Of a DNA stretch of 64,000 nt, positions 8,181-32,374 are shown piece after piece. The position numbers and the translations under genes were made by a program. The first letter of the stretch is position 1. Each line of letters begins with the position of its first letter. The notes beneath the pieces are model-generated. The model saw only the letters and a list, made by a program, of their open reading frames with translations, was not told the origin of the DNA and ran no database searches. The DNA comes from Candidatus Latescibacterota bacterium (GTDB taxonomy: Bacteria; Latescibacterota; UBA2968; UBA8231). Location: assembly GCA_964291625.2 (NCBI GenBank), contig OZ220089.1:1-64000 (forward strand), given 5' to 3'.

Positions 8181-9377
8181 CTACCGCGGACGGATGTCGA
8201 TGAACTCGAAGAAGCAGGTCGCCGTCACCCGGGCCGAGGAGGCCCTCCGGGGCGCGGCCAGGCTGTCCGCCCCCGCCGGCGCGGCACCGGCCGAGACCCG
8301 GAAGCGCCATTGCCGGAGGACGCCCTGAAGACACTCCTCCACGCCGGGGCTGACCACCGACGACGACAGGACGCGGACCTCCTCGACCAGTCCCGAGGGA
8401 AGGATGGTGAGGCGCACCTCCGCTTCCCCCTCCGAGGCCCGGCCGGCGAGGAACTCCGTCTCGAAGCAGCGGTTGACCTCGGCCAACCGGGACTTGGCGA
8501 AGGCGTCGATGGCGGTCACGTCGCGGGTGATGTCGCCGGTGACGGCGCCGCTGACCTCGCTCGGGGAAGCCAGCCTGGCGCGGGTCCCCTCCTCGGCCGC
8601 CTCCCGCCACTCGCGGTGCTCCCAGACCTCGACCGTCCGGCGCCGGTCGAACTCGAAGGCCAGGTCGACCGTCTTCAGGGGATTGTCGAAGGCGTTGAAC
8701 CTGAGGACGAGGTCGCGGATGTGCAAGGTGGCCCGCTCGACCTCGTCATCGAGGGGCTCGAAGGCGATGAACCCTCCGTACTCCTCGCCCTTGAAGATCT
8801 TCTCGCCGCTCAGGTAGCTGTTCGTACGCACGATGCCCATGCGCATGTTGAAGCGGTAGTACTCGTTGCCGCTGGGTCCGCGGCGCGTGCGGTAGTAGGA
8901 CTCGAAGTTGAGGCGCGCCGACCCGGCCCGGATGCCGTAGGGCTCCAGGGCCTCGCCCTCGCGGTCGGTGGTCAGCAGGGCCCGCAGGGGAGGCAGCTCG
9001 ACCTTGGCGTGATTGCGGTTGCGCACGGTCACGCGAAAGACGGTGAAGCGGTTGCGCACGTAGCCCACGGCGGGGTCGACGTAGTCGCCGTAGGTGTAGG
9101 GGTTGGAGGAGTAGCGCCCCTGGGTCGACTCGAGGGGGAAGAGCCGGTTGAGCTCCTCGTCGGTCATGTGCTTCACCTCGACGCGGAGCCCCTCGGCCTC
9201 GTGGGAGAGGACGCCGTCCTCCCCGGCGGCGTATCCCCCGCCGGGACCGGCCCTCGGGACCAGGAACGAGGAGTACTCGTAGCGCGGCGGGAAGAGCAGG
9301 GCGCAGCCGGCCAGCAGGGCCAGGGCGGCGCCCAGGGCGGACAACCTGCGGCAGGGGCTCTTCGAGGCGGTGGCCAT
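8181..9377 (-). CDS. Lipoprotein with C-terminal TonB-C/AgmX-PglI-like domain
   Basis: MATASK...ALLAGC lipobox; C-terminus ...VNRCFE...GEAEVRLTILPSGLVEEVRVLSS...VEECLQGVLRQWRF...VTATCFFEF matches the TonB_C/AgmX pattern. Confidence 0.7.
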   Translation of the reverse strand: MATASKSPCRRLSALGAALALLAGCALLFPPRYEYSSFLVPRAGPGGGYAAGEDGVLSHEAEGLRVEVKHMTDEELNRLFPLESTQGRYSSNPYTYGDYVDPAVGYVRNRFTVFRVTVRNRNHAKVELPPLRALLTTDREGEALEPYGIRAGSARLNFESYYRTRRGPSGNEYYRFNMRMGIVRTNSYLSGEKIFKGEEYGGFIAFEPLDDEVERATLHIRDLVLRFNAFDNPLKTVDLAFEFDRRRTVEVWEHREWREAAEEGTRARLASPSEVSGAVTGDITRDVTAIDAFAKSRLAEVNRCFETEFLAGRASEGEAEVRLTILPSGLVEEVRVLSSSVVSPGVEECLQGVLRQWRFRVSAGAAPAGADSLAAPRRASSARVTATCFFEFIDIRPR

Positions 9378-9391
9378 GGAATCGCGGCGTC

Positions 9392-10604
9392 TCACTGGTT
9401 GTAGAAGTCGATCTGCTGCTGGGCGATGGAGCCCCTCTGGGTGAGGGCGAAGACGACGAGGTTGATCCCCAGCTTCACGTGGGGCTCGTTCTCGTTCTCC
9501 CTCTCCCAGAAGGCCCCGTAGCCCTTGTCGGAGTAGACGGCCACCAGCCGGCCGTCGAGGTAGATCCCCTCCAGCCAGTGGGAGGCCCGCCTCCCGGCCT
9601 GGTTCTCTGCGGCGCCGACGCCGACCTCCCCCCCGGGAGGCGGTCCGGCGAGGTCGAAGAAGACGTGGTAGATGGGATGGCTGTCGGGGATGCGCTCGAA
9701 GCGGGCGTCGCGGCCCAGGGGCGTGGCGGAACATCTGTCTCAGCGAGGCCTCCGCGGGGCCGTGCTGCATCTGGGGCAGGTCGTTGTCGGCGACCACGAA
9801 GCCGCCGCTGCGAAGGTACCGGTCGAGGCTCGCCGCCTCGTGCTCCGTGAGTTCGAAAGCGCGGTCGGTGGTGATGTAGACGAAGGGCGCCTTGAAGAGG
9901 TCCTGGGAGTCGAGGTACATCTGGTCGTCGACCTTGGCCTCGATGCGGGTGTGGTCGTTGATCCAGCGGGCCAGCTGGATCATGGAGCGCTTGCGGGAAG
10001 GCTCGAGGACGGTGCCCCAGGCCAAGCCGAGGTAGATGAAGCCGGTGATGTTGCGCTTGTCGGTGGGGTCCTGGATCACCAGGCTCTTGACCTTGCCGAT
10101 GTCGAGGGCGGCCAGATCGAGGAACTCGGTCTCCATGTCGATCCGCTTCTCGGGCTCCTTCAGACTGGTCATGACGACCTGCTCGAACCGCGGGATGCCG
10201 ACGAGGGCGCCGTCCGCCTCCCCCTCGCCGGCCGGGAGGACGAACTCGCCGCCGGCCCGCGCCCGCGTCCATTCCACCGACCCGGTCACGGCCGTCCGAG
10301 AGAGACCGCCCCGCACCACCGTGGCCGTGCGATCGCTGCGGGAACTCACCACCGGCGAGCCTTCCGGCACGGCCTGCTTGCGGAAGGCGAACTCCCGCAC
10401 CAGCCGGGGGGCGGGGACGTAGAAGGGGGTCTCCTCCTCCTCGAACTCGAAGCGGGCCACGATCCGCTCCTCCTCCACCCCGGGGCGCGTGGCCATCCAC
10501 GCGAAGAGCGCCGCGTGGAGGGCCGCCGAGAGAACCAGGGCGCCGCCGAAGAACCGCCGGTTCCGGCGCAGGACGGCGAGGATGTCGCGCGGCCCCGGGC
10601 TCAC
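9392..10604 (-). CDS. Membrane-anchored DUF4159-domain protein (one frameshift near 9718-9721)
   Basis: N-terminal TM FFGGALVLSAALHAALFAW; PFVYIT...YLRSGGFVVADN. Removing one base in the G run at 9718-9721 continues HALGRDARFERIPDSHPIYHVFFD...LEGIYLDGRLVAVYS...KLGINLVVFALT...FYNQ* (stop 9392-9394). Confidence 0.75.
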
Positions 10605-13600
10605 AGGTGCTTCCTCACGATCGAGTCACGCCGCCGCCGGGCAAAGTCGGCCACCTCGGGGGTGACCTGGGCGTTGCCCGTCTCCTCCTGGTCGATGATC
10701 TCCTGGAAGACCCCCACGGCCCGCTCCCACTCCTTCAGCCGCTGCAGGCAGACGCCGGCGTTGACTTTGGCCCCCACGCCGCCGGGGGTGTCCGGGTAGC
10801 GGCGCCATACCTCCTCCAGGGAGGCCAGGGAGCCGCGCAGCTGGTCCTCGTCCTCCTCCTCGACCGCGCGGTTGAACCGCTCCATGGCGGCGGTGTACTC
10901 CTGGAAGGCGATCACCTCCCGCAGTTGGGGCAGCACGGCGGCGGCCTCCTCGGCGGCCTCCGATCCCGGATGCTCGTCGAGGATGCGGCGGAACAGCTCG
11001 TGGGCGCGCTCGTACTCGCCGGCGTTGAAGCTCATCTCGGCGAGGGTGTAGCGCACCCTCGGCAGGTGCCGGCCCCGGGGATGGCGCCCGGCGTACTCCG
11101 AGAACGCCCGCACCGTCTCCTCTCCGGCCTGGTTCTCCCCGGAGGCGTTGGCCAGGCACCAGGCGATGTTGTAGAGGGCGTCCTCGGCCAGGCTGCTGGA
11201 GGGATGCTCGTCCACGACCCGCCGGTAGTTGCGCCGCGCCCTGTCGTACCGGTCGAGGTTGAACTGGCTCTCGGCCAGGCGGAAGAGGGCGTCGGCCGCC
11301 ACGTCCAGGTGCGGGTAGCGCTCCACCACCTCCTCGAAGTGGCCGATCGCTTCGCCGAAGCGGGCCTGGTTGTAGTGGGCGAATCCGAGATAGTAGCGGG
11401 CGCGGCCGGCGTCCTCGTGCCCCGGGTGGCGCTCGAGGAGCCGCCCGAGGCGGCCCACCGCCAGCTCGTGGCGGTCGAGCTGGAGCGCCGCCAGCCCGCC
11501 CAGGAGCAGGAAGTCCGGCGCGTAGAACCCCTCCGGCCAGCGCTCGAGGCCGGAGGCCGCCGCGGCCTCGGCGGCCCCCACCTCCCCGAGCTGGATGCCG
11601 GCGTCGGCGAGCAGGTAGAGGGCCTTCTCGCGCACGTGGTACGGACGTCCCTCGGGCAGGCTCTCCCCCTCCTCGAACTCCAGCTCCGCGATGCGCCGGC
11701 AGGCGGCGGCGGCCTCCCCGTAGCGCCCCTCGCGGAAGGCGATTTCCCCCTGGGCGAGGTAGAGCTCGGCCCGCTCCAGGGGCGTCTGGGCGCTTCGGGC
11801 CAGCCGGCCGTAGAGCTCCAGGGCTTCCCCGGTCCGCCCCGACGAGGTGTAGGCCGTGGCCAGCAGGCGGGGGGCGGAGGCCCTTAGCTCGGGCTCGGTC
11901 CAGTCCCGCTCCAGGTCGACCAGGGCCTCGGCGGTGCGGCCGAGGCGGAAGAGGGTGACGGCGCGTCCGTAGGCGGCCCTCTCCTCCAGGTCGGGACCGG
12001 CGGCTTCGGCGGCGGCGGAGAACTCGGGCAGAGCGGCCTGGTGATCGCCGAGGCGCGAGTACGAGGCGCCCAGCAGGTAGCGGGACAGCGCCAGGGACCG
12101 GGGCTCCTGCTCCTCGACCTCCAGGCCGACCCGGAGGACCTCGATCGCCCGCCGCGGCTCCTCCTGCAGAAGCAGGATCTGTCCGGCCTCCTGCCGGGAG
12201 CGGCCGTAGAGGCCGGCCTCGGGGTCTACCTCCAGGAACTGCTCGACCGCCGCCTCCGGGTCGCCCGCGTCCCTGAGCACCTGGGCGAGCTCGAAGCGGG
12301 CCATCTCCGCCTCCGGCCGGTCGCCGAACCCGTCGATGAGGCGCCGGTACCCGGCGGCGGCCTCGGCGTGGCGGCCGGCCCCATGGTCGATCCGGGCGAC
12401 CTGGAAGAGGGCGCTCATGCGGTAGCCGCCGTCGCCGGCGGCGGCTACCCCGAGGAACAGCTCCCGGGCCTCCCGCAGCCGGCCGCCGCCGCCCTGCAGC
12501 TGCATGGCGAGGGCCAGGTTGAAGCGCAGCTCGGCCTCGTAGTCGGAGCCCGGGTAGGCGCCCAGGGTCTGGCGCAGCTCGGCCTCGGCCCGGCGCAGGT
12601 AGTCCGATCCCTCGTCGCCGGACCGGCCCTCAGCGCGGCGGAACCAGGCCCTGGCGATCTGCAGCCCCGCTCCCTCGACGCTGAGCCCGGCCTGGGCGGC
12701 GCGGGCCTCGTAGAGGTTCCGGTAGCGGTCGTACTCGCGCACCGCCTCCTCGTAGTTCTCCAGCTCGAAGTGGCGGTTGGCGAGCAGGAGCTGCATGCGG
12801 GCCTTGCCGAAGGGGTCCCGCTGGGCCTCGATGGCCCGGCGGTAGACATCGATGCAGGACTCGACGTCCCCCCGGCCGCAATACATGTCGGCGTGGCGCA
12901 GGTAGGCCTCCTCGGCCAGCCGGCGTTCCTCGGCGAACTGGGTGGCCACCACCTCGAAGGCCTCGGCCGCCCCCGCGAGGTCGCCGGTCTCGGCGTGGCA
13001 GAGTCCGATCCGGAGCAGCGCCTTGGCCGCCAGCTCAAGGGCGGTCTCGTCCACCAGTCCGGCGATCTTCTCCCGCTTCATCAGCAGGATCTCGCGCTCC
13101 GACATCCGGCCGATGCGCTGGGAGTCGACGAGGCGCCGATAGCGCGGGATCGCCTCGGAGCAGCGGCCGAGCCGGACGTAGGCCTCGCCGAGCTGGAACA
13201 GGGCCCGGTGGACGCGGTAGCCGCTAGAGAACCGCTCCACCAGCCGCTCGAAGGCGTCGATGCTGCGGCCGTACTCCTCCTGGTCGTACCAGGCCCAGCC
13301 GATGTCGTACATGGCGTTGATGACGTACTTGCTGCCGGGATAGCGCTCGATCAGCAGCCGCGCCCCCTCGATGGCCCGGGGGTAGTCCTGCATCCCGTAC
13401 CAGCAGGAGACCGCCTGGCTGCGGGCCAGGGCCTTGAGGGCCGGCTGCGACGAGGCCGCCTCGGTCTCCACGAAGAGGGCGGCGGCCTTCTCGTAGAGCC
13501 GGGAGGCCTCGGCCCCGAGCCGGACGCCCTCCTCCGGATCGCGGGCGCGCCCGGCCCGGGCCTGTGCTTCCCTGGCCATCTTGAGGTGGGCGTTGCCGGT

Positions 13601-13849
13601 CTGGTAACGGGCGACCTCCCGCAGCGGCGCGGTGATGTCCCCCACCGTGACCAGGACCGTTTCGCCGTCGAGGAAGGGGCTCTCGGTGGCGGCGATCCCC
13701 TCGTACTTCTCCAGGGCCTGGTCCCAGGCCCCGGAGGAGTAGAACCTCTGGGCCTCGGCGAAGGAGGCCTGCAGCTCCTCCCTCGTCGGCGACAGGCGGG
13801 AGGCCGCGACCATCGCCGCGAGGAGGCCCAGGATCGTCAGCTTGACCAT
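10601..13849 (-). CDS. Large periplasmic TPR protein (BamD/CpoB-like repeats), 1082 aa
   Basis: N-terminal hydrophobic signal or anchor; many TPRs with YPGS/HPSS turns (ALFQLGEAY, ALFRLAESQF, ALYNIAWC). Confidence 0.85.
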   Translation of the reverse strand: MVKLTILGLLAAMVAASRLSPTREELQASFAEAQRFYSSGAWDQALEKYEGIAATESPFLDGETVLVTVGDITAPLREVARYQTGNAHLKMAREAQARAGRARDPEEGVRLGAEASRLYEKAAALFVETEAASSQPALKALARSQAVSCWYGMQDYPRAIEGARLLIERYPGSKYVINAMYDIGWAWYDQEEYGRSIDAFERLVERFSSGYRVHRALFQLGEAYVRLGRCSEAIPRYRRLVDSQRIGRMSEREILLMKREKIAGLVDETALELAAKALLRIGLCHAETGDLAGAAEAFEVVATQFAEERRLAEEAYLRHADMYCGRGDVESCIDVYRRAIEAQRDPFGKARMQLLLANRHFELENYEEAVREYDRYRNLYEARAAQAGLSVEGAGLQIARAWFRRAEGRSGDEGSDYLRRAEAELRQTLGAYPGSDYEAELRFNLALAMQLQGGGGRLREARELFLGVAAAGDGGYRMSALFQVARIDHGAGRHAEAAAGYRRLIDGFGDRPEAEMARFELAQVLRDAGDPEAAVEQFLEVDPEAGLYGRSRQEAGQILLLQEEPRRAIEVLRVGLEVEEQEPRSLALSRYLLGASYSRLGDHQAALPEFSAAAEAAGPDLEERAAYGRAVTLFRLGRTAEALVDLERDWTEPELRASAPRLLATAYTSSGRTGEALELYGRLARSAQTPLERAELYLAQGEIAFREGRYGEAAAACRRIAELEFEEGESLPEGRPYHVREKALYLLADAGIQLGEVGAAEAAAASGLERWPEGFYAPDFLLLGGLAALQLDRHELAVGRLGRLLERHPGHEDAGRARYYLGFAHYNQARFGEAIGHFEEVVERYPHLDVAADALFRLAESQFNLDRYDRARRNYRRVVDEHPSSSLAEDALYNIAWCLANASGENQAGEETVRAFSEYAGRHPRGRHLPRVRYTLAEMSFNAGEYERAHELFRRILDEHPGSEAAEEAAAVLPQLREVIAFQEYTAAMERFNRAVEEEDEDQLRGSLASLEEVWRRYPDTPGGVGAKVNAGVCLQRLKEWERAVGVFQEIIDQEETGNAQVTPEVADFARRRRDSIVRKHL

Positions 13850-13856
13850 GCTCCCC

Positions 13857-16682
13857 TCATTCGTCGAAGCCGAGGATGACGTTCATGAAGAGGGTCGTGG
13901 CCTCCCAGTTCTCGGCCGCCCGCAGGGGGTCGCCGAACTCGCGCGACCTCCTTCTCACCCCCAGGTTCATGGCGACCTCGTAGCCGAAGTAGGGCGAGAG
14001 GTTGGTCAACTGCAGCACCCGCGACCTCTCGTCGATGCTGTTGAAGCCGTCGGCGCGGTCGACGACGCGCACCGGCAGCCCCGGCACCCCCTCCAGGCCG
14101 AACCACAGGCGGGTGTTGGCGGTCAGCCGGTAGCGCACCTTCACGATCGGCAGCAGGGTCCACTCGTTGACCAGGTCCACGGGCAGACTCTCCCGGGCGC
14201 GGCGGAAGACCATCGCCTTGAACTGTCCCGTGAGCTGCCACGACCGGGCCGGCTCCCACACGTACTCGCTCCGCGCCACGGCGGTGAGCAGCCCCAGGCG
14301 GTCGGGGGGCTGGTGGCTGCCGTCGGCGAGCCGGCTCGGGCGCTGGCGGTTGACCGCGTAGCGGGCGTTCCCCCACAGGCGCAGGCCGGGAGCTGCCCTC
14401 CACTCCCCCTCCAGGTAGTGCTGGCGGTCGACGCTGTCCCGCCACTCCAGGTTGTCCTTGAAGATGCGCCTTCCGTAGCGCGGGAAGGTCCCCCCTCCCG
14501 TGAGCCGCTCCGAGAACACCTGGTAGGGGTTCTCCACGTCGTCGTGGAGCCGCTGCCACAGGATCTCGGCCCGGAGTCGGCCCCGGTCGGGGTCGACGAG
14601 CTCCAGGGACAGGCGTCCGTACAGGCTCTCGTTGCGCCCGCCCCCGGCGATGCCCCGCGCGTGCAGGCGGCCGGCGGTCAGACCGAGGCCGCGGGGCAGG
14701 TGCAGGCGGCCGTAGAGGTGGGTGCCCCGCTGGTCGAGGTCGTAGGGGAAGTCGGGGCGCAGGTCGTCCTCGCGCTCGTCGACGATGCCGTTGTTGTTCC
14801 AGTCCCGCCCGTAGACGAAGGCGTCGGGCTCGACGTCGAAACGCAGGAAGGGCTCCAGGTAGTCGGGCAGGTCGTTGCCGTTGCGGTTGGTGTCGGGGAT
14901 GCCGTCGTTGTCGTCGTCCTTGCCGGGAAAGACGCCGTCGGGATCGTACTCGGGGGAGGTCCAGAAGATCACCGGCCGGTGGCCCGGGCCGAGGTCGGGA
15001 TAGCGGTCGTCGTCGTCGTTGTCCTCCACGAAACCGCCGCTGAACTCCTCCTCGATGGAGAACGCCTCGCCGCCGCCTTCGACCGCGCCCCGGCGCCAGC
15101 TCCCGGTCACGTACCAGGCCCCGGAGGAGGTGCGGCTGCGGTCCCCGTTCCACCGGCGCAGTTGCGCCGACTCGCTCAGGCGGCGGAAGCCGGGCCGGCC
15201 GTCGGGATACTGGCGGTGCTCCACGCTGCGCGCGTACTCCCAGCGGACCCGGGCCCCGGCCGCCTCCCAGGAGCCGTCGACGCCCCACAGGGCCCGGCCC
15301 GTCCAGCCGCCCACGTCCAGCCGCACCCAGTCCAGGTTCGACAGGTCCTGCACGTTGCCGGGGGCCCGGACCCCGGCCCGGACCCCGGGGGTCTCCCGGA
15401 TGTTGTTGCCGCCGACGATCCTCCCCGTGATCAGCCCGCCGCCGGTGCTCCAGAGGAACTCCTCCTTGTTGTTGCTGGCCTTCGTCTGGAACAGGCCGAC
15501 CACGTCGACGCGGTAGTCGTTGCCCACCAGGGCCTCCACCTGGGCGGCGCGCACGTAGGGCTCGCCGCGCAGGTCGTAGAACAGGAGCACCGCCTCGTGG
15601 CCGTCGGCCCGCAGCTGCCCGGGTCCCGGCGGCAGCGGCTCCACCCAGCGCAGGAGCTCCGGCAGGTTCACGAGCCGGCTCACGTCCTCGCCGGCGAGGT
15701 GGCGCTGCAGGTAGAACACGTCGGCGAAGCGGGTCCCCTCGTCCTCGTAGACGGTGCGCAGGAACCCCGTCCCCGTGGGGATGCCGACGGCCGTGGGATT
15801 CTGGGCGTCGATGCGCACGGCGAAGGGCTGCAGGTCGGGGCGGAGCTGGCCGTCCAGGTAGAGCCTCACGTCGTTGATCACCGCCCCGGCCGTGCGGTCC
15901 TCGGGGGAGTCGTCGGCGAAGCGCACGATGAGGAAGCTCGGAAGCACCTGGGGCGACTGCAGGCCCCCGCGCATGCTGAACTCCGCCTGGTCCGAGTCGA
16001 AGAGGTGGAAGTTCACCCCGGTGAGGCCGAGGCTGGCGGCCCCCACCCGGACCTCGCCGTGGCCGCCCAGCAGCAGGGCCGCGTCCCGGGCCTCCTCGGA
16101 GATGTCGACCTGCCACCAGGTCGGGGCCTGGCCGTACTGGTCGCCGGAGACCGGGCCCATCCAGCGCTCGGCGATGGTGGTGAAGCGGGCGCGGCCGGTC
16201 TCGGCGTCGAGGCGGACCCCGTCGAAGCCCGCCAGCCTCAGGGTGAGGGGTGTGAAGGTGGTGCGGATCTCGCTGCCGATGACGAGGGCCGTGGCCCACC
16301 CCTTGTGGGACTCCCGGGCCACAATGTTGCGCCCGAAGCGGTCCCAGCGGGCCCGGTTCTCCACCGGCAGGGGCAGTCGCCGGGAACTGCCCGCCGACTC
16401 GGTGAAGGTGTTGGTCCGCGTCTCCCGCCAGTCGTAGACGTCGTATCCCTTGATCAGGAAGTTCCCCATGGGCCCGTAGTGGTTGACCCGGGAGTAGCGG
16501 CTCGAGTCGGGGATCACGTAGTCGGCGAAGCTGTAGTCGCGATAGCCGCGGCCGGGCCGGTAGAGGAAATCGCGGCTGGAGAGCCCCAAGGGGACCTCCG
16601 GCGCGGCGTCGGTGCCCGCCGGCCCCGCGCTCCCCGCCAGGAGGAGGAGGGCCGCGTATCCGAGGCGGGCCCGGCCCGTCAT
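13857..16682 (-). CDS. Secreted ~940-aa hypothetical protein, paralogue 3 (putative outer-membrane protein with acidic Ca-binding-type repeats)
   Basis: Signal peptide MTGRARLGYAALLLLAG; shares DDSPED, GNVQDLSNLDWV, VEDNDDDDRYPD, GVFPGKDDDNDGIPD and DWNNNGIVDEREDD blocks with the two neighbouring genes; amphipathic strands at the C-terminus. Confidence 0.75.
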   Translation of the reverse strand: MTGRARLGYAALLLLAGSAGPAGTDAAPEVPLGLSSRDFLYRPGRGYRDYSFADYVIPDSSRYSRVNHYGPMGNFLIKGYDVYDWRETRTNTFTESAGSSRRLPLPVENRARWDRFGRNIVARESHKGWATALVIGSEIRTTFTPLTLRLAGFDGVRLDAETGRARFTTIAERWMGPVSGDQYGQAPTWWQVDISEEARDAALLLGGHGEVRVGAASLGLTGVNFHLFDSDQAEFSMRGGLQSPQVLPSFLIVRFADDSPEDRTAGAVINDVRLYLDGQLRPDLQPFAVRIDAQNPTAVGIPTGTGFLRTVYEDEGTRFADVFYLQRHLAGEDVSRLVNLPELLRWVEPLPPGPGQLRADGHEAVLLFYDLRGEPYVRAAQVEALVGNDYRVDVVGLFQTKASNNKEEFLWSTGGGLITGRIVGGNNIRETPGVRAGVRAPGNVQDLSNLDWVRLDVGGWTGRALWGVDGSWEAAGARVRWEYARSVEHRQYPDGRPGFRRLSESAQLRRWNGDRSRTSSGAWYVTGSWRRGAVEGGGEAFSIEEEFSGGFVEDNDDDDRYPDLGPGHRPVIFWTSPEYDPDGVFPGKDDDNDGIPDTNRNGNDLPDYLEPFLRFDVEPDAFVYGRDWNNNGIVDEREDDLRPDFPYDLDQRGTHLYGRLHLPRGLGLTAGRLHARGIAGGGRNESLYGRLSLELVDPDRGRLRAEILWQRLHDDVENPYQVFSERLTGGGTFPRYGRRIFKDNLEWRDSVDRQHYLEGEWRAAPGLRLWGNARYAVNRQRPSRLADGSHQPPDRLGLLTAVARSEYVWEPARSWQLTGQFKAMVFRRARESLPVDLVNEWTLLPIVKVRYRLTANTRLWFGLEGVPGLPVRVVDRADGFNSIDERSRVLQLTNLSPYFGYEVAMNLGVRRRSREFGDPLRAAENWEATTLFMNVILGFDE

Positions 16683-19456: not shown

Positions 19457-19457
19457 G

Positions 19458-22151
19458 CTACAGGGCCCGGACCTGGATGAAGAACTCGGTGAACCTCTCC
19501 ACCGGCTGCTTCGGCAGCGAGACCCGCACGGCGCGGCTCGAGCGGACCCCCATGTTCACGCTCACGTCGTAGCCGCTGTAGTTGCCCGTGGTCTGCACCG
19601 CCGCGAGGTAGTGGCGGGCGTCGAAGTCCTCCCCCTCGGCCCTGCAGTTGCGGTGCATGTGCCGGAACCCGGGGACCCCCTGGACCCCGGCCCTCAGGAG
19701 CGTGCCGGAGCTGAGGCGGTAGTCGGCGCGGAGGATTGGGAAGAGGTCCCAGACGTGCACCGAAGCCAGCAGCCGCCCCGGGGCCTCCCGCCGCAGCACC
19801 AGGAGCTTGGCCATCGGCGAAAGGGTGATCCCGCCGCGCACCCAGGTGTAGTCGGCCTTGCTCACGAAGGCGTACTCGCGCACGTCGCCCGGGACCGCCC
19901 CGACCCCTGCGCGGCGGGCGTTCCACTCGCACTTCACCGCGTTGAAGACGTCGAGGCCGCGGATCGCGGTGTAGCGGCCCTCCAGGAAAGCGGTGTGGAC
20001 GAGGCTGTTGGCCAGGAGCAGCCCGTCGGGCCTCAGCCGGTAGACGACCTCGGCCCTCGAAGTCTGATCGAAGGCGTGCTGGTAGACGGGGTTGGGGATG
20101 TCATCGCGGACCCTGCGTAGGCGGTAGTTCAGGCGCATTCCGCCGGTCCCATCCCGGGTGAGGCCGTACCCCAGCTCGGCGTAGCTCACCTCGTTGCGGC
20201 CGCCGCCGGCCCGCTGGCGCAGGTCGTAGCGCCCCACGACCAGGTCGAGCCCCGGCGCCGGCCCCAGGCCGAGAAGGACGTGATACCCCCTCTGGTCGCG
20301 GTCGTACGGGTAGTCGGGCTTGTTGTCGTTCTCCCTCTCGTCGACGACCCCGTTGTTGTTGAAGTCGTCGCCGTACACGAACTCGTCGGGCTCGGCCCCG
20401 TACATGAAGAAGGGCTCGGCGTAGTCTGGGATGTGATTGCGGTTGACGTTCACGTCCACCGTGGCGTCGTCGTCCGCGTCGAGGCCTGGGAAGACTCCGC
20501 GGCCCCCTCCGAGCTGGTAGTCCCACCGGGGCTGGGGGACCTGGGCGTCGGGGTCCGGGTCGCTCGAGGAGCGGTAGACCTGGGACCACGCCGGATCGAG
20601 GACGTCCCAGTGCTCGACCACGTCCGGCCACTCGTCGCCGTCGTCGTTGTCCTCCACGAGGTCGTAGCGCAGCAGCTTGTTGCCGCCGCTGAGCCAGACC
20701 GGCATGGAAGTCTCGAAAGCGGCGGGCATCTCCACGTACTCCAGGCCGAGCCGCCAGCCCGCGGCCTTGCGTGACAGCCGGGCGTACCAGGCACCGGTGC
20801 CGTCGGCGCGGCGGCGGCCGTCATGGGGGAACTGGAAGCGCTGCTCGTTGAGCACGTAGGCGGCGTCCACGGTGGCGCCCAGCCACCTCACCGTGAGGTT
20901 GCTACCGTACTGGGCAAGGCCCGTCGGGAAGCCGTATTCGACGGTCACCCAGGCGAGGTTGGACCCATCGGTGACGTTGCCCGCCGCCCGGGCGACGTTG
21001 TGCCAGTCGTCCCAGCGCGGCTCTCCTCCTCCCTGGAAACCGTACGAGGCGCCCACGTCGATGCTGTAATCGCCGGAGACCCGCAGCCGGTAGCGCAGGT
21101 CCCGGGCCGCCCCGGGGATCTCGAAGCGGTAGATGAGCAGGTCCGTGCCGGTGACCTCCACGGGGCCCCCGCCGGAAGGTACGGGAACGCCGTGGGTGAA
21201 GAAGCGGCCCGGCCGGCCCCTGCTCCGGGTATCCACCCGGAGCACCCTGTCGGCCTCCGGAATCCGCGGCGCCCAGGCGCCGTCGCGGCGGATGTGGGGC
21301 GCGTGCTCGGGATCGACGGTTAGGAGCGTCCGGCGGGTGCCGTCGAAGACCGAGGTCGGCAGCAGGCGGACATCCGGCTCCAGGTCGAGCACCCGGCCGT
21401 CGGCGACGACCTGGATATCGAAGAGCCGGGGACCGAGACCGTCCCCGGGCGAGTCGTCGCTGATGATGACGTAGTAGGAGCCGGCCGGCTCGAGACGGGT
21501 GGGGACGTTGCCGCGCAGGCTGGCGCCGCGCCGCTGCGAGTCCTGAAGGTGGAAGTTGACGTAGGTCGCCCCGAAGGTGACCACATCGCCCACCCTGCTC
21601 TCCCAGTGGCCGCCGAAGAGGTAGTGGGAGAAGAACCGGTTGGCGCTAATCGGCCGGGGCGCCCGGGAGACGACGGCGGAGAAGCGGTTGCGGTGGGAGG
21701 AGGCGTCCCAGCGGAAACCCTCCAGGCGGGCCAGGTTCAGGGTCAGGGGGCCGAAGTAGCCGTCCAGCAGGTCTCCCATCATGAACCGGGAGCCCCAGCC
21801 CCGGTAGTCGTCGCGGAGGATGACCATGTTGCGGAAACGGCCCAGGTCCCACGAGGCGGAGCTGCTGACGATAGGGTTGAGCGTCCGCGTCTCCTGGACC
21901 CGCAGGATCTCCCGCCCGTCGACGAGATAGAGCCCGAAGGGGTCGTAGAGCGGGGCCTCCCGACTCTCGCCGTAGTCCCGGTAGCTGTTCAGGCTGTAGT
22001 TCTCGTAGCGCTCCTCCCAGAGGGGGTGGTACTCCTTGTTGAGGAATTCCCGCTCCCCCGACCACGGATCCTGGCTGAGGAACTGGGCGTGGGCGGCCCC
22101 CGCCGCCAGGAGCGCGGTGAGGGCTGCGCTAGTAAGCGACGGCGACGACAC
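19458..22151 (-). CDS. Secreted 897-aa hypothetical protein, paralogue 1
   Basis: Signal peptide ending AHA; LFGGHWES, DDSPGD, GNVTDGSNLAWVTVEYG, VEDNDDGD, GVFPGLDADDD, DDFNNNGVVDERENDNKPDYPYD. Confidence 0.75.
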   Translation of the reverse strand: MSSPSLTSAALTALLAAGAAHAQFLSQDPWSGEREFLNKEYHPLWEERYENYSLNSYRDYGESREAPLYDPFGLYLVDGREILRVQETRTLNPIVSSSASWDLGRFRNMVILRDDYRGWGSRFMMGDLLDGYFGPLTLNLARLEGFRWDASSHRNRFSAVVSRAPRPISANRFFSHYLFGGHWESRVGDVVTFGATYVNFHLQDSQRRGASLRGNVPTRLEPAGSYYVIISDDSPGDGLGPRLFDIQVVADGRVLDLEPDVRLLPTSVFDGTRRTLLTVDPEHAPHIRRDGAWAPRIPEADRVLRVDTRSRGRPGRFFTHGVPVPSGGGPVEVTGTDLLIYRFEIPGAARDLRYRLRVSGDYSIDVGASYGFQGGGEPRWDDWHNVARAAGNVTDGSNLAWVTVEYGFPTGLAQYGSNLTVRWLGATVDAAYVLNEQRFQFPHDGRRRADGTGAWYARLSRKAAGWRLGLEYVEMPAAFETSMPVWLSGGNKLLRYDLVEDNDDGDEWPDVVEHWDVLDPAWSQVYRSSSDPDPDAQVPQPRWDYQLGGGRGVFPGLDADDDATVDVNVNRNHIPDYAEPFFMYGAEPDEFVYGDDFNNNGVVDERENDNKPDYPYDRDQRGYHVLLGLGPAPGLDLVVGRYDLRQRAGGGRNEVSYAELGYGLTRDGTGGMRLNYRLRRVRDDIPNPVYQHAFDQTSRAEVVYRLRPDGLLLANSLVHTAFLEGRYTAIRGLDVFNAVKCEWNARRAGVGAVPGDVREYAFVSKADYTWVRGGITLSPMAKLLVLRREAPGRLLASVHVWDLFPILRADYRLSSGTLLRAGVQGVPGFRHMHRNCRAEGEDFDARHYLAAVQTTGNYSGYDVSVNMGVRSSRAVRVSLPKQPVERFTEFFIQVRAL

Positions 22152-24414
22152 CGCTTCGGGTCTCGTTGCCCGTGTCGAGATCGGCCTCGACTCGGAAGAG
22201 GTAGAGCCCCGGGGGCACCCTCCTTCCGGCCGCGTCGGTGCCGTCCCAGGTTCCGGGCGCCCCCGGACCCACGTAGGCGCCAGCCGGGACCGGCGGCGGG
22301 GTGAGGTCGCGCACCGGCCGGCCGCCGAGATCGAAGATGCGGATCGAAACGCGCCGCGGCCGGTCCACCACCGAGAGGATGAACTCGATCACCGTGCGGT
22401 CGTTGATGCCGTCGCCGTTCGGCGTGATCACCGGCGGCTCGGCCCGCACCTGCGAGAGGGCGTCTTCCCGGGTCGTGGAGGTGGCCACCGACCAGGACCA
22501 GGGCTCGTCCGTGTCCGGGTCGCGGCCTCGGTTCTCGGCGGCGTTGAGGGGGTTCTCAGAACCCGGACTGAAGAGGGCCGCCCGGAACTCGTGAGCGCTG
22601 GCGTGGGTGCGCGTAAGAAAGGGGATCTCCAGCGCCATGGGCGCGGCCAGGGGCTCGGCGAAGGTCAGGGTGAGGTGCCGCTGGGTGGACTCCCAGCCCG
22701 AGAGCAGATCGCTGACGGCGGCCTCTTCCGCCAGCCGGGCGGCGCTCGGCACGTCGATGCGCAGCCTCGCGACGCCGAGATCCTCCGCTTCTAGCTCGAG
22801 ATCCAGGTGGTAGGTGAAGAGCTGCTCCTCGCCCATGGGGACCCTGTTGGGCGAGACCCGGCCCCGGGTCGCCCGTCGATGGAGCAGCCCCGACCCCGCG
22901 GGATAGAGAGCGGTGGAGGCGGCCACCTCGGTGTCGAAGTCCACCTCCAGATGCTCGAACACCGGCGTGAGGTCCTGGTCGTGGGTCGCCAGGTGGAGGC
23001 GATACTGCAGGAGCCGCCCCGGCTCGGCGGCGGGGAACCAGGCGCCGCTGGAGTCAGGGGCGCTCCAGCCTCCGTCGTCGGTGAAGACGGCCAGCTCCAG
23101 GGTGTCGTCGCCGGCGGCGAACTTCGCCAGCGAGTCCCCCGCGGCGGAGACGAAGAGCCGGCGGCCGTCCGCGGCGGCGGCGAGGGAGTCTCCCGTGCGA
23201 ACCTCGAGCGAGATGCTGGTGCGCTCGGGGACCGTCGCCTCCCAGCGCAGCCGCCCCAGGTTCTTTGGGCCGGCGGGGGCGCCGAGGTCCAGGAGCCGGG
23301 AGAGGTAGACGCCCTCGTCGGCGAATCCGTCGCCGAAGACCTCGAACTCGGCGATCGCCGGGCGGGAGCCGGGGTTGATGTCGACGATGACGAAGCGCAC
23401 GAAGCGCGTCCAGGTGGGGCGGAATTCCACCTCCGTCCACGGGTACTGGGACGGGTCGGCGTCGGCACCGGAACAGGGGGAACGCTTCCAGGGCATGCAG
23501 CCGATGTCGTGGCGCACGCCGACCTCGGTCCAGCGGATCTGGTCGTCGCTGACCTGCACCGAGTAGCCCCGCAGGGAGTTCTCCTCGAACTCCCTGGCGT
23601 TTCGGCCCAGGGTGATGACCCTGACCTTGTGGATCAGCCGCCGGTCCTGCAGGTCCACGTCGGCGGAGAAGCTGAGGGCGCTCGCCGGGGCGTTCCAGCC
23701 CTTCTCCAGATTCCCGTCCACGACCTCGGGGTGGTTGGAAGGCTTGCCGAGGGCGAGGTTCACGCCCCTGATCCGGCCGAGGACCACGCCCCCCGCCACG
23801 CTGCCTAGGTCGACGCCTCCGGGCAGACCCGCGACCACGGCCGGAAGCCCTCCCGGGAGCCCGTCGTATGCGACACCGCTCGTGTCCATTGCGCCTTCCT
23901 GGACCACCAGCCAACCCTCGCGGTCCTCCACCCCGCCCATCGTCCATTCCGTCCCCTGCGGCCGATCGGCCGACCAGCGCCAGGCCTGGATCCTCTGGTT
24001 CGTCGTCGTCCGGGCGAGGATCGAATCCCCGGCGACCACAGCCGCCATGACGCCGTTCCCGGCCCCGTCGCCGCCATTCACGACGGCGATACCGATGTCG
24101 TTCTCACCGCTCGCGATGGCGACTTCGTGGGCGGTCATCCGGGTCCAGAGGGAGTCGGAGCCGACGCGGAGACCGTTGAAGAAGACCTCGTACTGGTCGA
24201 CGGCAGCCACGTGCAGGGACCCCGTCGTCTCCGCTCCGGAGACGAAGGTGGTCCGGTAGAGGATGGTGTCGGGCCAAGTGCTCTGCACCAAGGAACCCGG
24301 ACCGGCGGCAGCCCTCCCAGCAAAGGGGGCGGCCGTCAAGACGAGGACGTACGCCGCCAGACGGCCGCCGCTCCTGACGGGAGAAGGACGGCTGCTCAGG
24401 TCGGGGCTCGGCAT
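22129..24414 (-). CDS. Secreted protein with discoidin/F5-8 type C-like domain and C-terminal FlgD/CHU_C-like Ig domain
   Basis: NLALGKPS...VDGN...VDLQ...YSVQVSDDQIRWT...TRFVRF...IAEFEVFG; C-terminal ITPNGDGIND...IFDLGGRPVR...WDGTDAAGRRVPPGLYL. Confidence 0.8.
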   Translation of the reverse strand: MPSPDLSSRPSPVRSGGRLAAYVLVLTAAPFAGRAAAGPGSLVQSTWPDTILYRTTFVSGAETTGSLHVAAVDQYEVFFNGLRVGSDSLWTRMTAHEVAIASGENDIGIAVVNGGDGAGNGVMAAVVAGDSILARTTTNQRIQAWRWSADRPQGTEWTMGGVEDREGWLVVQEGAMDTSGVAYDGLPGGLPAVVAGLPGGVDLGSVAGGVVLGRIRGVNLALGKPSNHPEVVDGNLEKGWNAPASALSFSADVDLQDRRLIHKVRVITLGRNAREFEENSLRGYSVQVSDDQIRWTEVGVRHDIGCMPWKRSPCSGADADPSQYPWTEVEFRPTWTRFVRFVIVDINPGSRPAIAEFEVFGDGFADEGVYLSRLLDLGAPAGPKNLGRLRWEATVPERTSISLEVRTGDSLAAAADGRRLFVSAAGDSLAKFAAGDDTLELAVFTDDGGWSAPDSSGAWFPAAEPGRLLQYRLHLATHDQDLTPVFEHLEVDFDTEVAASTALYPAGSGLLHRRATRGRVSPNRVPMGEEQLFTYHLDLELEAEDLGVARLRIDVPSAARLAEEAAVSDLLSGWESTQRHLTLTFAEPLAAPMALEIPFLTRTHASAHEFRAALFSPGSENPLNAAENRGRDPDTDEPWSWSVATSTTREDALSQVRAEPPVITPNGDGINDRTVIEFILSVVDRPRRVSIRIFDLGGRPVRDLTPPPVPAGAYVGPGAPGTWDGTDAAGRRVPPGLYLFRVEADLDTGNETRSGVVAVAY

Positions 24415-24454
24415 CGGGGATGCGCCTGTTACGAAGGGAGGGAGGCGGCCGGAA

Positions 24455-24498
24455 TGAAAAAAGAAAGCGGCAGGTGGATCACACTGTCCACCTGCCGC
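24455..24498 (-). terminator. Rho-independent terminator after the first gene of the envelope operon
   Basis: Perfect 12-bp stem GCGGCAGGTGGA (24467-24478) / TCCACCTGCCGC (24487-24498), followed on the minus strand by TTTCTTTTTT. Confidence 0.85.
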
Positions 24499-24559
24499 CG
24501 AAGGACTCGACCAGGGGCGGGCAGCCGGAGACGACTGCCCTCCACCTGTCGTTCCGCGC

Positions 24560-26500
24560 CTACTTGAGCAAGGTCAGCCGCTTCGAGTCGACGAAGTCAC
24601 CCGCCGTCAACTCGTAGACATAGACTCCACTGGCCACGGGGTAGCCGTTGGCAGCGAGACCGTCCCACGTGGCCTCGTAGACCGCAGAATTCAGCGGCTC
24701 GTTGACCAATTCGGCCACCTCCTGCCCGGCGGAGTTGTACACGGCGATCCGCACGGTGACGTCCTCTCCGAGACCGCCGATCTCGAAGGGGATCGTCACT
24801 TCGGGGTTGGCCGGGTTGGGATAGGCGTCCCCCAGGGAGGAGCTCGCCGGAGTGGCGCCTGCTCCGACCTCGGCCACCGCCGTGAACTGGTCGCCGATGC
24901 GTCCGGTGATGAGGTCGGCGGGCGTGTGGTTTGCGGTGATCTGGCCACCGTACTGGGTGTAGTAGCCGTCCCATGACGAGCCGTGGTTGATCCAGCGGAC
25001 ATAGCCCGGGTTGGTGCCGGGGACCACGCCGGGGATGTCGACCTTGAACAACCCCGAGCCGTCGGGGCCGAGGACCCAGCCCTCCAGGGGTGTGTTGTAG
25101 CCGCTCCAGACCGAGATGCCCCAGCTTGTGGCCGCCACCTCGGTGTTGGTCAGCTGGTCGAAGCCGTTGGGATCGCCGCCGGCGGCCTCGGCCTCGGGAC
25201 CGTAGAGGCGCTCGATGAAGCCGTCGCCGTTGCGGTTCTGCCAGATCAGGGAGCCGTCGAAATCCCTCTTCATGGGGAAGCTCTGGAGGTTGAAGAAGTC
25301 CCCTTCGGCGACGTTGTCCCAGAACTGGTGCGCGTCGAGGCCCGTCGTGTAGATACCGGTGTCGTCCACGTCAAGCCCCCAGGGCCCCGATACCTTCATC
25401 TGATCGGCGCCGTCGGCGTCGACCCAGGGGGTGGTGTAGTACTCGGTGTAGTCGATCATGTCCACGATCTCGCCGGTGGCGCGATCGAGGGAGTAGACGG
25501 CCGGCTGAACGGGCCAGCCGTTGGGCCTGTGGCTGACCCAGATGAGGCCGTCGTCGGCCACCCACGGATGGTGCTGCTCGGCCGAAAGGGCCGAGCCGGG
25601 CATGCGCTCGTCGAAGGCGACGAAACGGCCGGGATCGGAGACCGGCCAGTCCGGGTCGGGGGTGATGGTGCCCCCATCTTCGTCGATGATCGCCTTGAAG
25701 ACGCCGACGGATGGAGTGTTGCGGTACTTGATGACGTAGATGATGCTGTTGTCGGCCGGATCGATCTCGAGACTGCCCATGTCGTTCCAGCCGCCGTCGG
25801 CATCGGCTCCGGTCATTTCGTTCACCCAGGGGACGCCGAAGGTCTCGTACGGGATCTGCTTCTCCGCGCCTTCCTCCGGGTAGAACACCGAGTAGTCGGT
25901 GCCCATCGGGGCCCGCCGGATGGTGTGGGCGTTGGACCCTCCCTCGATGTCGGTGGCGTGGTAGGTCCAATAGACCATGGGCGCCTCGGGATCGTCGGTG
26001 GGATCGAAGCGCGTGGCCTGGGCCCAGGGGCTGTTGCCGCCGCCGACGATGGTCGGGGTCGTGTCCTGGTTGATGGCGAACAGGTAGTATCGGTAGGTTC
26101 CCGATGCCACTTTGTTCCCGTTGTAGTCGGTGCCGTCCCAGGAGATCGTCCCGTCTCCGGCGGGCATGTCGACGCCGGGCGAGACGTACACCAGCTCGTC
26201 GATCCCGGCCGCTCTCACCACGGCCCCGCCCGGACCTCCCCCGTCCGTGGCGGGAGGGTTAGCGCCCTCCGTGTACACCGCGAGCCACACCGTGGCCTCA
26301 TGGCTCAGGGTGAAGGGAAGCTGCAGATCGCCGTTGAAGTCGTAGGGGACGTCACCGGTCTCACCGAGGGTGAGCTTGACCGGAAAGCCGTACCGGTAGG
26401 TGGTGTGCCAGCCGAAGTCCGGATCTCCGTACTGTGCCGTCTGCGCGAAGACCGCGCCGGCCAGAAGCAGACCCGAAAGGGCCGCCATCGGTGTTCTCAT
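24560..26500 (-). CDS. Secreted protein with an N-terminal FlgD-like domain, probable beta-propeller core and C-terminal FlgD/T9SS-like sorting domain
   Basis: Signal MRTPMAALSGLLLAGAVFA; ISWDGTDYNGNKVASGTYRY; C-terminal TAV...AYPNPANP...VYNSAGQEV...WDG...VASGVYVY...KRLTLLK; strong GGAGGGAGG RBS. Confidence 0.85.
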   Translation of the reverse strand: MRTPMAALSGLLLAGAVFAQTAQYGDPDFGWHTTYRYGFPVKLTLGETGDVPYDFNGDLQLPFTLSHEATVWLAVYTEGANPPATDGGGPGGAVVRAAGIDELVYVSPGVDMPAGDGTISWDGTDYNGNKVASGTYRYYLFAINQDTTPTIVGGGNSPWAQATRFDPTDDPEAPMVYWTYHATDIEGGSNAHTIRRAPMGTDYSVFYPEEGAEKQIPYETFGVPWVNEMTGADADGGWNDMGSLEIDPADNSIIYVIKYRNTPSVGVFKAIIDEDGGTITPDPDWPVSDPGRFVAFDERMPGSALSAEQHHPWVADDGLIWVSHRPNGWPVQPAVYSLDRATGEIVDMIDYTEYYTTPWVDADGADQMKVSGPWGLDVDDTGIYTTGLDAHQFWDNVAEGDFFNLQSFPMKRDFDGSLIWQNRNGDGFIERLYGPEAEAAGGDPNGFDQLTNTEVAATSWGISVWSGYNTPLEGWVLGPDGSGLFKVDIPGVVPGTNPGYVRWINHGSSWDGYYTQYGGQITANHTPADLITGRIGDQFTAVAEVGAGATPASSSLGDAYPNPANPEVTIPFEIGGLGEDVTVRIAVYNSAGQEVAELVNEPLNSAVYEATWDGLAANGYPVASGVYVYELTAGDFVDSKRLTLLK

Positions 26501-26674
26501 CTTCCTGCCTCCCTCCTGCAAGGGTGGTCGGGGGTCGTTTTTACCATGAGGCTGTCCGCCCCCTTTGAGGGGCGTCTGGGAAACTTCACACCTTGTTGTT
26601 TTCCTGTAACTTAGGGGATATTGTGATCAAGGTGGGGAGGAATCCCCACTACACATTTGGAGGATAGTGTATCC

Positions 26675-27262: not shown

Positions 27263-27524
27263 CTGCTCCTCCTGGCGGCTCCCTGCCGAGGCCGGTGGCG
27301 CGGCGTTCTCCTGCCGGCTTCCCCCGGCGGCGGGAGTAACCGCCCCGGCATGGAGCGGCGACTGCGGCCAAGGAAGATGGGCATCCAGCCATGGCAGGAG
27401 TAGTCCCTGGCACCGCCATGGGCGGGATCTGGCCTGCTGGACGGTGGCGTCGACGGCCGGCTATCGTTGCCCGCCCCCGGAGCCACCTCCGGATTCTCCC
27501 TCCCGGCGGGAACCGGGAGCACTC

Positions 27525-30310: not shown

Positions 30311-30322
30311 GACCGCCTCTCG

Positions 30323-32240: not shown

Positions 32241-32374
32241 GGGTCAGGCTCCTTGGGCGGAGGGGTGGCGCGGTACCGGCGGTTCTCGCACAAGGTAGGG
32301 AGCCGGCCGGGGGCGGAGCCAGATGCGGCCCCCGCGCCTTGCGGCACGGCGCCGGCGCCCCCACCCTTGCCGCC

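Follow-up and report, generated by a model that had tools for sequence, protein, structure and literature searches.

A genome of 5.9 Mb in two contigs (C1 and C2), whose nearest named relatives are metagenome-assembled genomes (MAGs) labelled Candidatus Latescibacterota, carries in its first 64 kb eight co-oriented minus-strand genes, here termed A–H, lying head to tail within positions 8181–26521 of this 64,000-nt stretch (the window). We read these genes as one copy of a conserved, multi-copy, envelope-spanning module of the Fibrobacterota–Chlorobiota–Bacteroidota (FCB) group, for which capture and uptake of macromolecules coupled to the proton-motive force is the most likely function, at a probability of about 45% for this reading. 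The core parts are B, at least one barrel of a paralogous family that we call PAR (C, D and E in the window), F, G, H and a dedicated ExbB–ExbD–ExbD motor. The features are as follows.

24560–26521, minus strand: gene A, 653 aa; secreted; FlgD Ig-like domain (internal) and C-terminal sorting domain of type A, the latter of a type IX secretion system (T9SS)
24466–24499, minus strand: terminator-like hairpin in the A/B gap, from a consensus scan; 13-bp stem, 9 G–C pairs, T-rich tail
22129–24414, minus strand: gene B, 761 aa; secreted; discoidin (F5/8 type C) and type-B-like C-terminal domains
19458–22151, minus strand: gene C (PAR1), 897 aa; predicted outer-membrane beta-barrel of an unnamed family
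16679–19456, minus strand: gene D (PAR2), 925 aa; predicted outer-membrane beta-barrel of about 24–26 strands
13857–16682, minus strand: gene E (PAR3), 941 aa; third barrel paralogue, of the last-position clade
10601–13849, minus strand: gene F, 1082 aa; signal-peptide-bearing tetratricopeptide repeat (TPR) protein that lacks a lipobox
9392–10604, minus strand: gene G; N-terminal single transmembrane helix and periplasmic DUF4159, frameshifted in the assembly
8181–9377, minus strand: gene H, 398-aa lipoprotein; N-terminal beta-sandwich and TonB/TolA-like C-terminal domain
30323–31012, minus strand: ExbB, MotA_ExbB Pfam match
29882–30310, minus strand: first ExbD, ExbD Pfam match
29487–29885, minus strand: second ExbD, ExbD Pfam match

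Gene content, paralogy, synteny, phyletic co-occurrence and the linkage of B-type C-terminal domains (CTDs) to barrel genes were computed directly. An initial annotation of this DNA had described eight co-oriented genes, most of them overlapping or nearly abutting, and this layout was confirmed: B and C overlap by 23 nt, D/E and F/G by 4 nt each, and the remaining spacings are 1 nt (C/D), 7 nt (E/F), 14 nt (G/H) and 145 nt (A/B). As it had also described, the cluster encodes no recognisable enzyme or SusC/TonB-dependent receptor, since none of the eight proteins matched an enzyme, Plug or TonB-dependent-receptor family in Pfam or NCBIfam. Signal peptides were assigned by eye, without a predictor. 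A may have its own transcript, because a strong terminator-like hairpin lies between it and B; a promoter scan found no sigma-70-like site, and the sigma-70 consensus says little for Latescibacterota.

The three barrel genes are mutual paralogues with 35–38% identity (C versus D, 38%). No Pfam or NCBIfam family was found for any of them, Pfam being empty even at E ≤ 10, and searching Protein Data Bank (PDB) sequences with the barrel profile gave nothing credible (best E 0.015, saporin). Within a protein atlas they fell among uncharacterised clusters only, with DUF6029 as the nearest named entry (0.89; a lead only), and the family had 1014 members at E ≤ 0.001 in a library of 1.84 billion representatives, which puts it at about 1,000 representative clusters at 50% identity. 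Built on 46 sequences, the AlphaFold2 model of D (pLDDT 74.6, pTM 0.77) is a large beta-barrel, its strand number (about 24–26) being counted from the model's strand list, with a beta-sandwich inserted at about residues 232–414. A second insert, at about residues 505–631, holds most of the invariant residues of the family in Asp/Asn/Gly/Pro motifs; judged by sequence, this Asp/Asn-rich insert looks like calcium sites. Residues 1–120 are disordered or of low confidence in the model, and no folded N-terminal plug appears there.

Structure searches with the D model found only distant likenesses. Foldseek against the PDB ranked SlpA of Deinococcus (8ae1) best, at E 7.5e-9 with a TM score of only 0.23, followed by MtrB and LptD; structures of TonB-dependent transporters (TBDTs) appeared only as weak rows with TM scores of about 0.2. 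An exhaustive VIA-align search returned a flat list at Z 12–13.7 made up of CymA, maltoporin, SprA, SlpA and PapC (SlpA 7zgx: Z 12.4, 425 residues aligned, rmsd 7.9 Å). D is thus predicted to be an outer-membrane barrel without a close solved relative, and C and E are called barrels because they are paralogous to D, the sole modelled paralogue. The predicted fold agrees with the earlier description of the three paralogues as outer-membrane proteins. Two other identities were considered for them: a soluble enzyme is ruled out by the barrel fold as modelled, and a SusC/TBDT homologue is ruled out by the lack of any family match, the Plug and TonB_dep_Rec families leaving C, D and E unmatched even at E ≤ 10.

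The triplication is old and its order fixed. In a midpoint-rooted FastTree phylogeny of 45 barrels (sequences covering >700 profile positions, none dropped; supports not inspected), C, D and E fell into three separate clades, each together with the same-position genes of other families. The PAR1 clade is the one that always adjoins B, the PAR3 clade takes the last position, and the barrels of loci with one or two barrels form a fourth clade.

Conservation extends well beyond the window. Among 151 sampled genomes of the phylum, which are related and so not independent samples, the barrel profile matched 94, including all 63 of the organism's own family (f1) and none of those in families f2 (0/30), f3 (0/19) and f4 (0/2). 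The H profile matched 97 of the 151 with a similar family pattern, except that one family gave weak H matches only (E 1e-12 to 1e-14) and another had H in 11 and the barrel in 13 of its 13 genomes. Gene order was kept in regions from seven genomes of 46–62% GC, one of which (G006) reads B, barrels, TPR, ExbB, ExbD, ExbD, G, H. Overall, the genomes that keep the order span 46–72% GC.

Scanning 185,579 species genomes revealed 548 relatives, and we compared the best 75 loci, some of them cut by contig ends. Their labels were Latescibacterota (45), Gemmatimonadota or similar (11) and others (19: KSB1, Zhuqueibacterota, Kryptoniota, Ignavibacteria, Bacteroidota, one Myxococcales and one unclassified). 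A B-type CTD was the next labelled feature before the barrel in 49 of these 75 foreign loci; TPR, G and H genes were present in 42, 40 and 43, respectively, and B followed by a barrel together with TPR and G or H in 35. Outside Latescibacterota we found a single-barrel form in the order B, PAR, TPR, ExbB, ExbD, G, H (for example, loci L085, L091, L122, L126 and L135). Chance adjacency of the cluster genes was considered and is ruled out by synteny conserved within the genome and across phyla. The initial annotation had suggested a system specific to Latescibacterota-like bacteria; that restriction has to be dropped, as KSB1, Zhuqueibacterota, Kryptoniota, Ignavibacteria and Bacteroidota-labelled MAGs carry the same neighbours.

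Within the organism's own genome the cluster is one of many. Searching six-frame open reading frames (ORFs) with the window proteins showed that the order A, B, three PAR genes, TPR, G, H is repeated at C1:354536–372782 (39–60% identity to the window proteins), C1:4438494–4457613 and C2:42073–65584, with a partial copy (TPR, G, H) at C2:2–4180, the very start of contig C2. At eight further loci, one or two barrels are accompanied by several B-type CTD proteins and, in many cases, by an H-like lipoprotein. The genome thus holds 13 loci, five of them full or near-full copies, and 25 full-length barrel genes by the barrel profile; such numbers fit substrate- or cargo-specific modules better than the single machine, possibly for motility, of the earlier proposal. 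Gene calls outside the window come from a home-made caller based on GC content at third codon positions (GC3), and their starts are approximate.

The copy at C2:42073–65584 lies on one strand throughout with tight spacing, in the order A-type gene, B, three barrels, DUF5683, a 127-aa ORF, G, ExbB, ExbD, ExbD, DUF4340, a 415-aa TPR protein, F and H. Its extra in-line genes encode DUF5683 (C2:55106–55648), DUF4340 (C2:58908–60251) and the second, 415-aa TPR protein. Contig C2 itself begins inside the TPR gene of another copy (C2:1–1687), and the assembly therefore probably broke in a repeated cluster locus, whose upstream barrels are possibly absent from the assembly.

The link to the proton-motive force, which the initial annotation had raised, was strengthened by an ExbB–ExbD–ExbD set at 29487–31012 (minus strand), 3 kb upstream of the cluster beyond a plus-strand sulfatase gene, and by such sets inside the cluster in other copies and phyla. 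Pfam scores were 108.4 bits for MotA_ExbB (cut-off 22.9) and 68 and 65.4 bits for ExbD (cut-off 25.4), and no tonB gene follows the set in the window. ExbB/ExbD lie inside the C2 cluster copy (C2:57326–58903), directly after the copy at C1:4438494–4457613, and 3–12 kb from the remaining copies; six of the seven ExbB homologues found in the genome by a single-sequence search are within 12 kb of a G/H locus. Elsewhere, ExbB–ExbD(–ExbD) stands between the TPR gene and G in other genomes (G006 and G015), and 10 of the 19 loci belonging to other phyla have ExbB/D. Away from the window, second ExbD genes were detected with the first-ExbD query. What is known of ExbBD-type motors that work with a TonB-like partner comes chiefly from import and Tol functions.

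Three proteins could connect this motor to the barrels. F consists of TPRs throughout, with YbgF/CpoB-like and BamD-like repeats in Pfam and NCBIfam, and is presumed to be a periplasmic scaffold; an F homologue follows the barrels in the own-genome copies. G carries S-x3-H, the motif of the TonB N-terminal anchor, in its transmembrane helix, and its profile picks out a single solved structure, PDB 4i66 (E 3.7e-17), an uncharacterised protein. H has a lipobox and no transmembrane anchor, the S-x3-H helix sitting instead on G, which ends in DUF4159.

In the assembly, G is split by a 1-nt frameshift into an N part (9740–10604) and a C part (9392–9739) in different frames, which match DUF4159 (PF13709, cut-off 25.9) at 52.3 and 39.4 bits. 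The site is one extra base in a G4 run at 9718–9721. A related-strain contig (X3, about 96.5% alike) and an RNA-library contig (X6) are both one base shorter at 9718, G without the extra base is a single 403-aa ORF, and the paralogous G copies of the genome are in one frame. The X1 contigs agree with the window at this site, but their depth is 2.7 and X1 may be the source sample; G copies of same-genus genomes, at only about 73% identity, are too distant to judge an assembly error.

The AlphaFold2 model of H (pLDDT 87.2) has two domains. VIA-align found that the N-terminal beta-sandwich (about residues 33–250) resembles YcdA, YjhA and MPT63 (Z 8.2–9.4; 4r4g, Z 9.4), and placed the C-terminal domain (about residues 280–396) on TonB C-terminal domains at Z 6.5–7.2, with rmsd 2.4–2.8 Å over 78–90 residues (9ddz: Z 7.2, rmsd 2.4 Å over 83 residues). 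Foldseek likewise matched the TonB CTD 6fip with probability 1.0, and the domain also superposes on the TolA C-terminal domain. Like the barrel fold of PAR2, the TonB-CTD-like fold of H is thus predicted from a model. By sequence, H reached 51 bits on NF033768, the AgmX/PglI C-terminal domain (cut-off 40), and stayed below the cut-offs of Pfam TonB_C (19 bits; 24.6) and TIGR01352 (24.0 bits; 27.1).

The AgmX/PglI match bears on the Myxococcus Agl–Glt gliding apparatus, to which the initial annotation had compared the cluster. That the two parts lists are analogous stands; homology gains no support, as GltG (20 bits versus 650), GltE (15.2 versus 225) and Tgl (47 versus 225) all remained far below their cut-offs. 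A gliding-motility apparatus analogous to Agl–Glt would draw on this similar parts list and on H exceeding the cut-off for the AgmX/PglI domain, which going by the model is merely a TonB-C-like fold. The multi-copy, modular distribution is unlike one motility machine, and we regard gliding as highly improbable.

F and H, together with the barrel likeness to SlpA, also invite an envelope-integrity or tethering role of the Tol–Pal or SlpA/OmpM kind, with SlpA-like barrels, a CpoB-like TPR protein and a TolQR-like channel. F scores 192 bits on the YbgF/CpoB model TIGR02795 (cut-off 90.1), SlpA is the top Foldseek match of D, the C-terminal domain of H is TolA-like as well, and SlpA_C (PF21620; cut-off 35) is reached at 37.1 bits by a relative labelled Zhuqueibacterota, two others scoring 32.7 and 26.6 bits and C, D and E of the window giving no match. 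The YbgF score, however, is gathered from four repeat stretches in a protein four times the length of YbgF, and no cluster protein has an SLH, OmpA_C or Pal domain in Pfam or NCBIfam. Five full copies, 25 barrels and variable B-type proteins at each are unlike a housekeeping tether, and the module was not found in 51 sampled genomes from three families of the same phylum, which makes this role distinctly unlikely in our view.

The surface side of the module is formed by B and, at some loci, A. B, one of the core parts, has its gene directly upstream of that for the first barrel; the protein matches F5_F8_type_C and FlgD_ig, with 27.6 bits on CHU_C, barely above the cut-off of 27. A matches FlgD_ig (57.9 bits) and CHU_C (33.4 bits) and passes the T9SS type A model TIGR04183 (27.8 bits, cut-off 23); since this type A protein matches CHU_C too, CHU_C does not discriminate type A from type B. 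Homologues of A (A_N) lie upstream of B in two other own-genome copies and in many Latescibacterota- or Gemmatimonadota-labelled loci, and were not seen in loci of other phyla among the 75 compared; A is accordingly an accessory part, found mainly in Latescibacterota- and Gemmatimonadota-labelled loci.

Aligning 29 own-genome copies of the B-type CTD revealed a common F(T/S)PNGDGxND motif, a WDGRD...PPGxY block and a terminal VAY. Of these 29 proteins, 26 matched FlgD_ig, 23 CHU_C, 11 TIGR04131 (E ≤ 0.01) and 11 discoidin; look-alikes of B in the protein atlas were hypothetical discoidin/CHU_C proteins. Of 31 ORFs with a B-type CTD, 28 are no more than 15 kb from a barrel gene and 12 are directly upstream of one, the 31 including two weak matches (C1:1143345 and C1:1523032) that were excluded from the alignment of 29. 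Type A CTD ORFs of the same genome lie within 15 kb of a barrel gene in 4 of 92 cases.

This linkage recalls Bacteroidota, in which, as set out in PMC9143113 and PMC12618676, the barrel bound by type B cargo is PorP/SprF-like and has its gene directly downstream, and PorP also binds the periplasmic protein PorE; PMC12635249 describes SprF-type barrels moved through the membrane by a motor-driven periplasmic track. The module may likewise be a platform for surface display or adhesin handling, in which PAR would anchor B-type cargo after T9SS export, as SprF does with SprB, and TPR, G, H and ExbBD would free cargo from the translocon or move and tension the anchored proteins, as motor-driven adhesins or for attachment to a sponge host. 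The linkage of B to barrel genes, the type-B-like CTD and the binding, non-catalytic domains of B-type proteins speak for such a platform, as do two precedents: PorE–PorP–PG1035 with its periplasmic partner (PMC9143113) and motor-coupled SprF-type barrels (PMC12635249).

The habitat would suit host attachment as well. Near-identical sequence was found mostly in sponge metagenome runs, X2 contigs being identical and X3 contigs about 96.5% alike, so an association of the organism with sponges is probable; Latescibacterota, an uncultured phylum, are often met in sediments and sponges. Contigs of the RNA library X6 fall on genes B–G with 0–7 differences, which is a weak hint of expression at most, since DNA carry-over is possible. 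Against display, PorP/SprF anchor barrels are about one-third of the PAR size, the PAR proteins match no PorP/SprF model, ExbBD motors with a TonB-like partner serve chiefly import and Tol functions, and 25 large barrels per genome are many for anchoring alone. Display or anchoring is a close rival of uptake, and taken by itself we think it rather unlikely.

Both readings have B exported by a T9SS, and the genome encodes parts of one: SprA and two PorU exceed their cut-offs, one PorU beside a PorV-like gene (114 bits versus a cut-off of 250). These genes and about 92 scattered type A CTD ORFs lead us to expect a working T9SS. A model search for PorP/SprF (TIGR03519) found none in the genome, where the top score, from an unrelated place, was 20 bits (cut-off 90.55), and no match in C, D or E. 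The GldM model had no match in the genome, but it is silent in every control genome too and hence says nothing. The GldK model gave weak FGE-like matches only; two FGE/SUMF1-like matches (59 and 70 bits, cut-off 350; C1:353846–354181 and C1:1766330–1766791), one just downstream of an H copy and one adjoining a B-type CTD gene, could be sulfatase-maturing enzymes or PorK/GldK-like lipoproteins.

These T9SS parts weigh on the notion that the PAR barrels are themselves an autonomous secretion channel, which would export A and/or B independently of the T9SS, powered by ExbBD through G and H. Large barrels of about 24–26 strands resembling SprA, PapC and other translocons at Z of about 12 would suit such a channel, as would cargo-like genes directly upstream of the barrels and the undetected GldM, its control being uninformative. 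With SprA and PorU over cut-off, the PorV-like gene and some 92 type A CTD ORFs, however, a working T9SS is expected, A has an ordinary type A tail, and the translocon matches are no better than the porin matches; a secretion channel is improbable.

We hypothesize that capture and uptake would proceed in the steps below, for which we infer every physical contact, the direction of transport, the substrate and the function. A and B would be exported across the outer membrane by the genome's T9SS. The CTD of B would then dock on the cognate PAR barrels, as type B cargo does on PorP/SprF, forming a ligand-binding cap. ExbBD would energise G, with F scaffolding the periplasmic side, and the TonB-like domain of H, where present, would contact the barrels so that proton-motive energy reaches them. 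Finally, a captured macromolecule, such as a glycan, would be pulled through or off the barrel, giving TBDT-like uptake from unrelated parts. Uptake is favoured because ExbBD paired with a TonB-like partner mainly drives import, because B-type proteins are binders and not enzymes, and because the locus family is expanded like substrate-specific uptake loci.

Several observations weigh against uptake in this form, and those on the TonB box and plug, the H domain, the type B assignment, the lack of enzymes and the frameshift in G count against display as well. The barrels showed neither a TonB box nor a plug, nor did they match a TBDT family, and their first ~120 residues are unmodelled, being of low confidence in the D model. 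Only 3 of the 11 H copies in the genome have the TonB-like C-terminal domain, and the other eight lack it; many H homologues elsewhere align only to profile positions of about 5–255; and the His of the G helix is kept in only 4 of 6 aligned homologues. ExbB/D were found in only 17 of the 75 foreign loci (single-sequence queries, flanks of ≤10 kb). The cluster contains no glycoside hydrolase or peptidase, and none of the 29 B-type proteins matched an enzyme family. The type B assignment is borderline, since the window B lacks a TIGR04131 match at E ≤ 0.01 and exceeds the CHU_C cut-off by 27.6 to 27 bits only. The module is not simply a substitute for PorP/SprF, because Bacteroidota-labelled MAGs carry it too, and the window's copy may be impaired, because its G is frameshifted.

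The enzymes that we found are only among the neighbours of these loci: a sulfatase, an S9-like esterase and, at another locus, a GDSL-like protein. The sulfatase gene (27144–29480, plus strand; Pfam Sulfatase, 166 bits) lies on the opposite strand and separates the cluster from ExbB–ExbD–ExbD; it might hint at the use of sulfated glycans or be incidental. A lipoprotein-like hydrolase of the S9/esterase family (7259–8170, minus strand) starts 10 nt past the H stop and may be co-transcribed; no homologue adjoins the other own-genome cluster copies. Further left, a 346-aa protein (6060–7100, minus strand) has no Pfam family and six paralogues in the genome, the closest of which (E 2.8e-220; C2:16841–18214) adjoins an ExbB–ExbD–ExbD set at C2:15123–16644, so that the left part of the window and the start of C2 look like a rearranged segmental duplication. 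Elsewhere in the window, a 377-aa ORF (62695–63828, minus strand) ends in a type A CTD (tblastn match 62698–62976) and adjoins a 1038-aa ORF (59568–62684, minus strand), and an ORF at 32339–33376 (plus strand) fuses DUF2784 (125 bits) with an Rce1-like CAAX protease domain (66 bits).

The earlier suggestion that this is an undescribed system has held so far, with no described counterpart in Pfam/NCBIfam, in PDB sequences or in the literature searched. That literature, supplementary files lying outside the search, yielded no description of the module, and the term DUF4159 appeared in it only in the Pfam database article. Motors of the Ton type, T9SS cargo, barrels in the outer membrane and TPR scaffolds are all familiar kinds of part; neither this barrel family nor the split TonB-like arrangement, nor the way in which the parts are combined, is known. 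Here, an unnamed barrel family without a Pfam or NCBIfam model is a fixed member of a gene module that several FCB phyla conserve. The module could provide a function for DUF4159 and a new way to couple the proton-motive force to the outer membrane, and would extend the principle of type B cargo and cognate barrel beyond the PorP/SprF of Bacteroidota. The expanded module is likely to be central to polymer uptake or retention in Latescibacterota, and its one-barrel form in Ignavibacteria- and Bacteroidota-labelled MAGs points, on evidence from MAGs, to groups with cultured members.

Among known systems, those of type B cargo with PorP/SprF (PG1035–PorP–PorE and SprB–SprF) share with the module a CTD protein (CHU_C- or type-B-like) encoded directly upstream of a barrel gene, a periplasmic partner and many cargo–barrel pairs per genome. 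PorP/SprF barrels have roughly 300–400 aa, whereas those of the module have about 900 aa, are triplicated and match no PorP/SprF model; unlike the PorP/SprF systems described, the module also brings an ExbBD of its own, together with a DUF4159 protein as anchor and a lipoprotein of TonB-C-like kind. With TonB–ExbB–ExbD and TBDT or SusC–SusD loci it shares an ExbB–ExbD–ExbD channel, a membrane-anchored partner whose helix is of the S-x3-H type, a domain like the C terminus of TonB, a large barrel in the outer membrane, binding proteins at the surface and many paralogous loci per genome. It differs from these in having no Plug, TonB_dep_Rec or SusD family match, in a surface protein that is of the T9SS CTD type rather than a lipoprotein, and in functions of TonB apparently split between G (anchor and DUF4159) and H (lipoprotein and TonB-C-like domain).

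Likeness to Agl–Glt lies in the outer-membrane barrels, the TPR protein, the TonB-like protein with an AgmX/PglI C-terminal domain and the TolQR-type motor; unlike Agl–Glt, the module is multi-copy, includes T9SS-type CTD proteins and reaches no Glt model at cut-off. With Tol–Pal and CpoB/YbgF it has in common a TolQR-like channel, CpoB-like TPRs and a TolA-C-like fold in H, but the cluster lacks Pal, TolB and OmpA-like domains and is multi-copy and patchily distributed. Deinococcus SlpA/OmpM is the closest by Foldseek (8ae1), and one relative of the barrels reaches SlpA_C; the TM score is only 0.23, SLH and coiled coil are absent, the gene context is different and the window's C, D and E miss SlpA_C. 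SlpA is a trimer according to its PDB entry title, which would fit three conserved paralogues.

Taken together, a tentative and as a whole doubtful picture would place the module beside Ton, Tol, Agl–Glt and T9SS as a further, FCB-wide class of ExbBD-powered outer-membrane machine. A DUF4159 anchor and a TonB-C-like lipoprotein would divide the role of TonB between them; the barrels would be new and distantly SlpA-like, their fixed-order trio in Latescibacterota maybe a heterotrimer; and a T9SS-delivered surface cap, docked by a type-B-like CTD, would link the T9SS with Ton-type energisation for macromolecule uptake.

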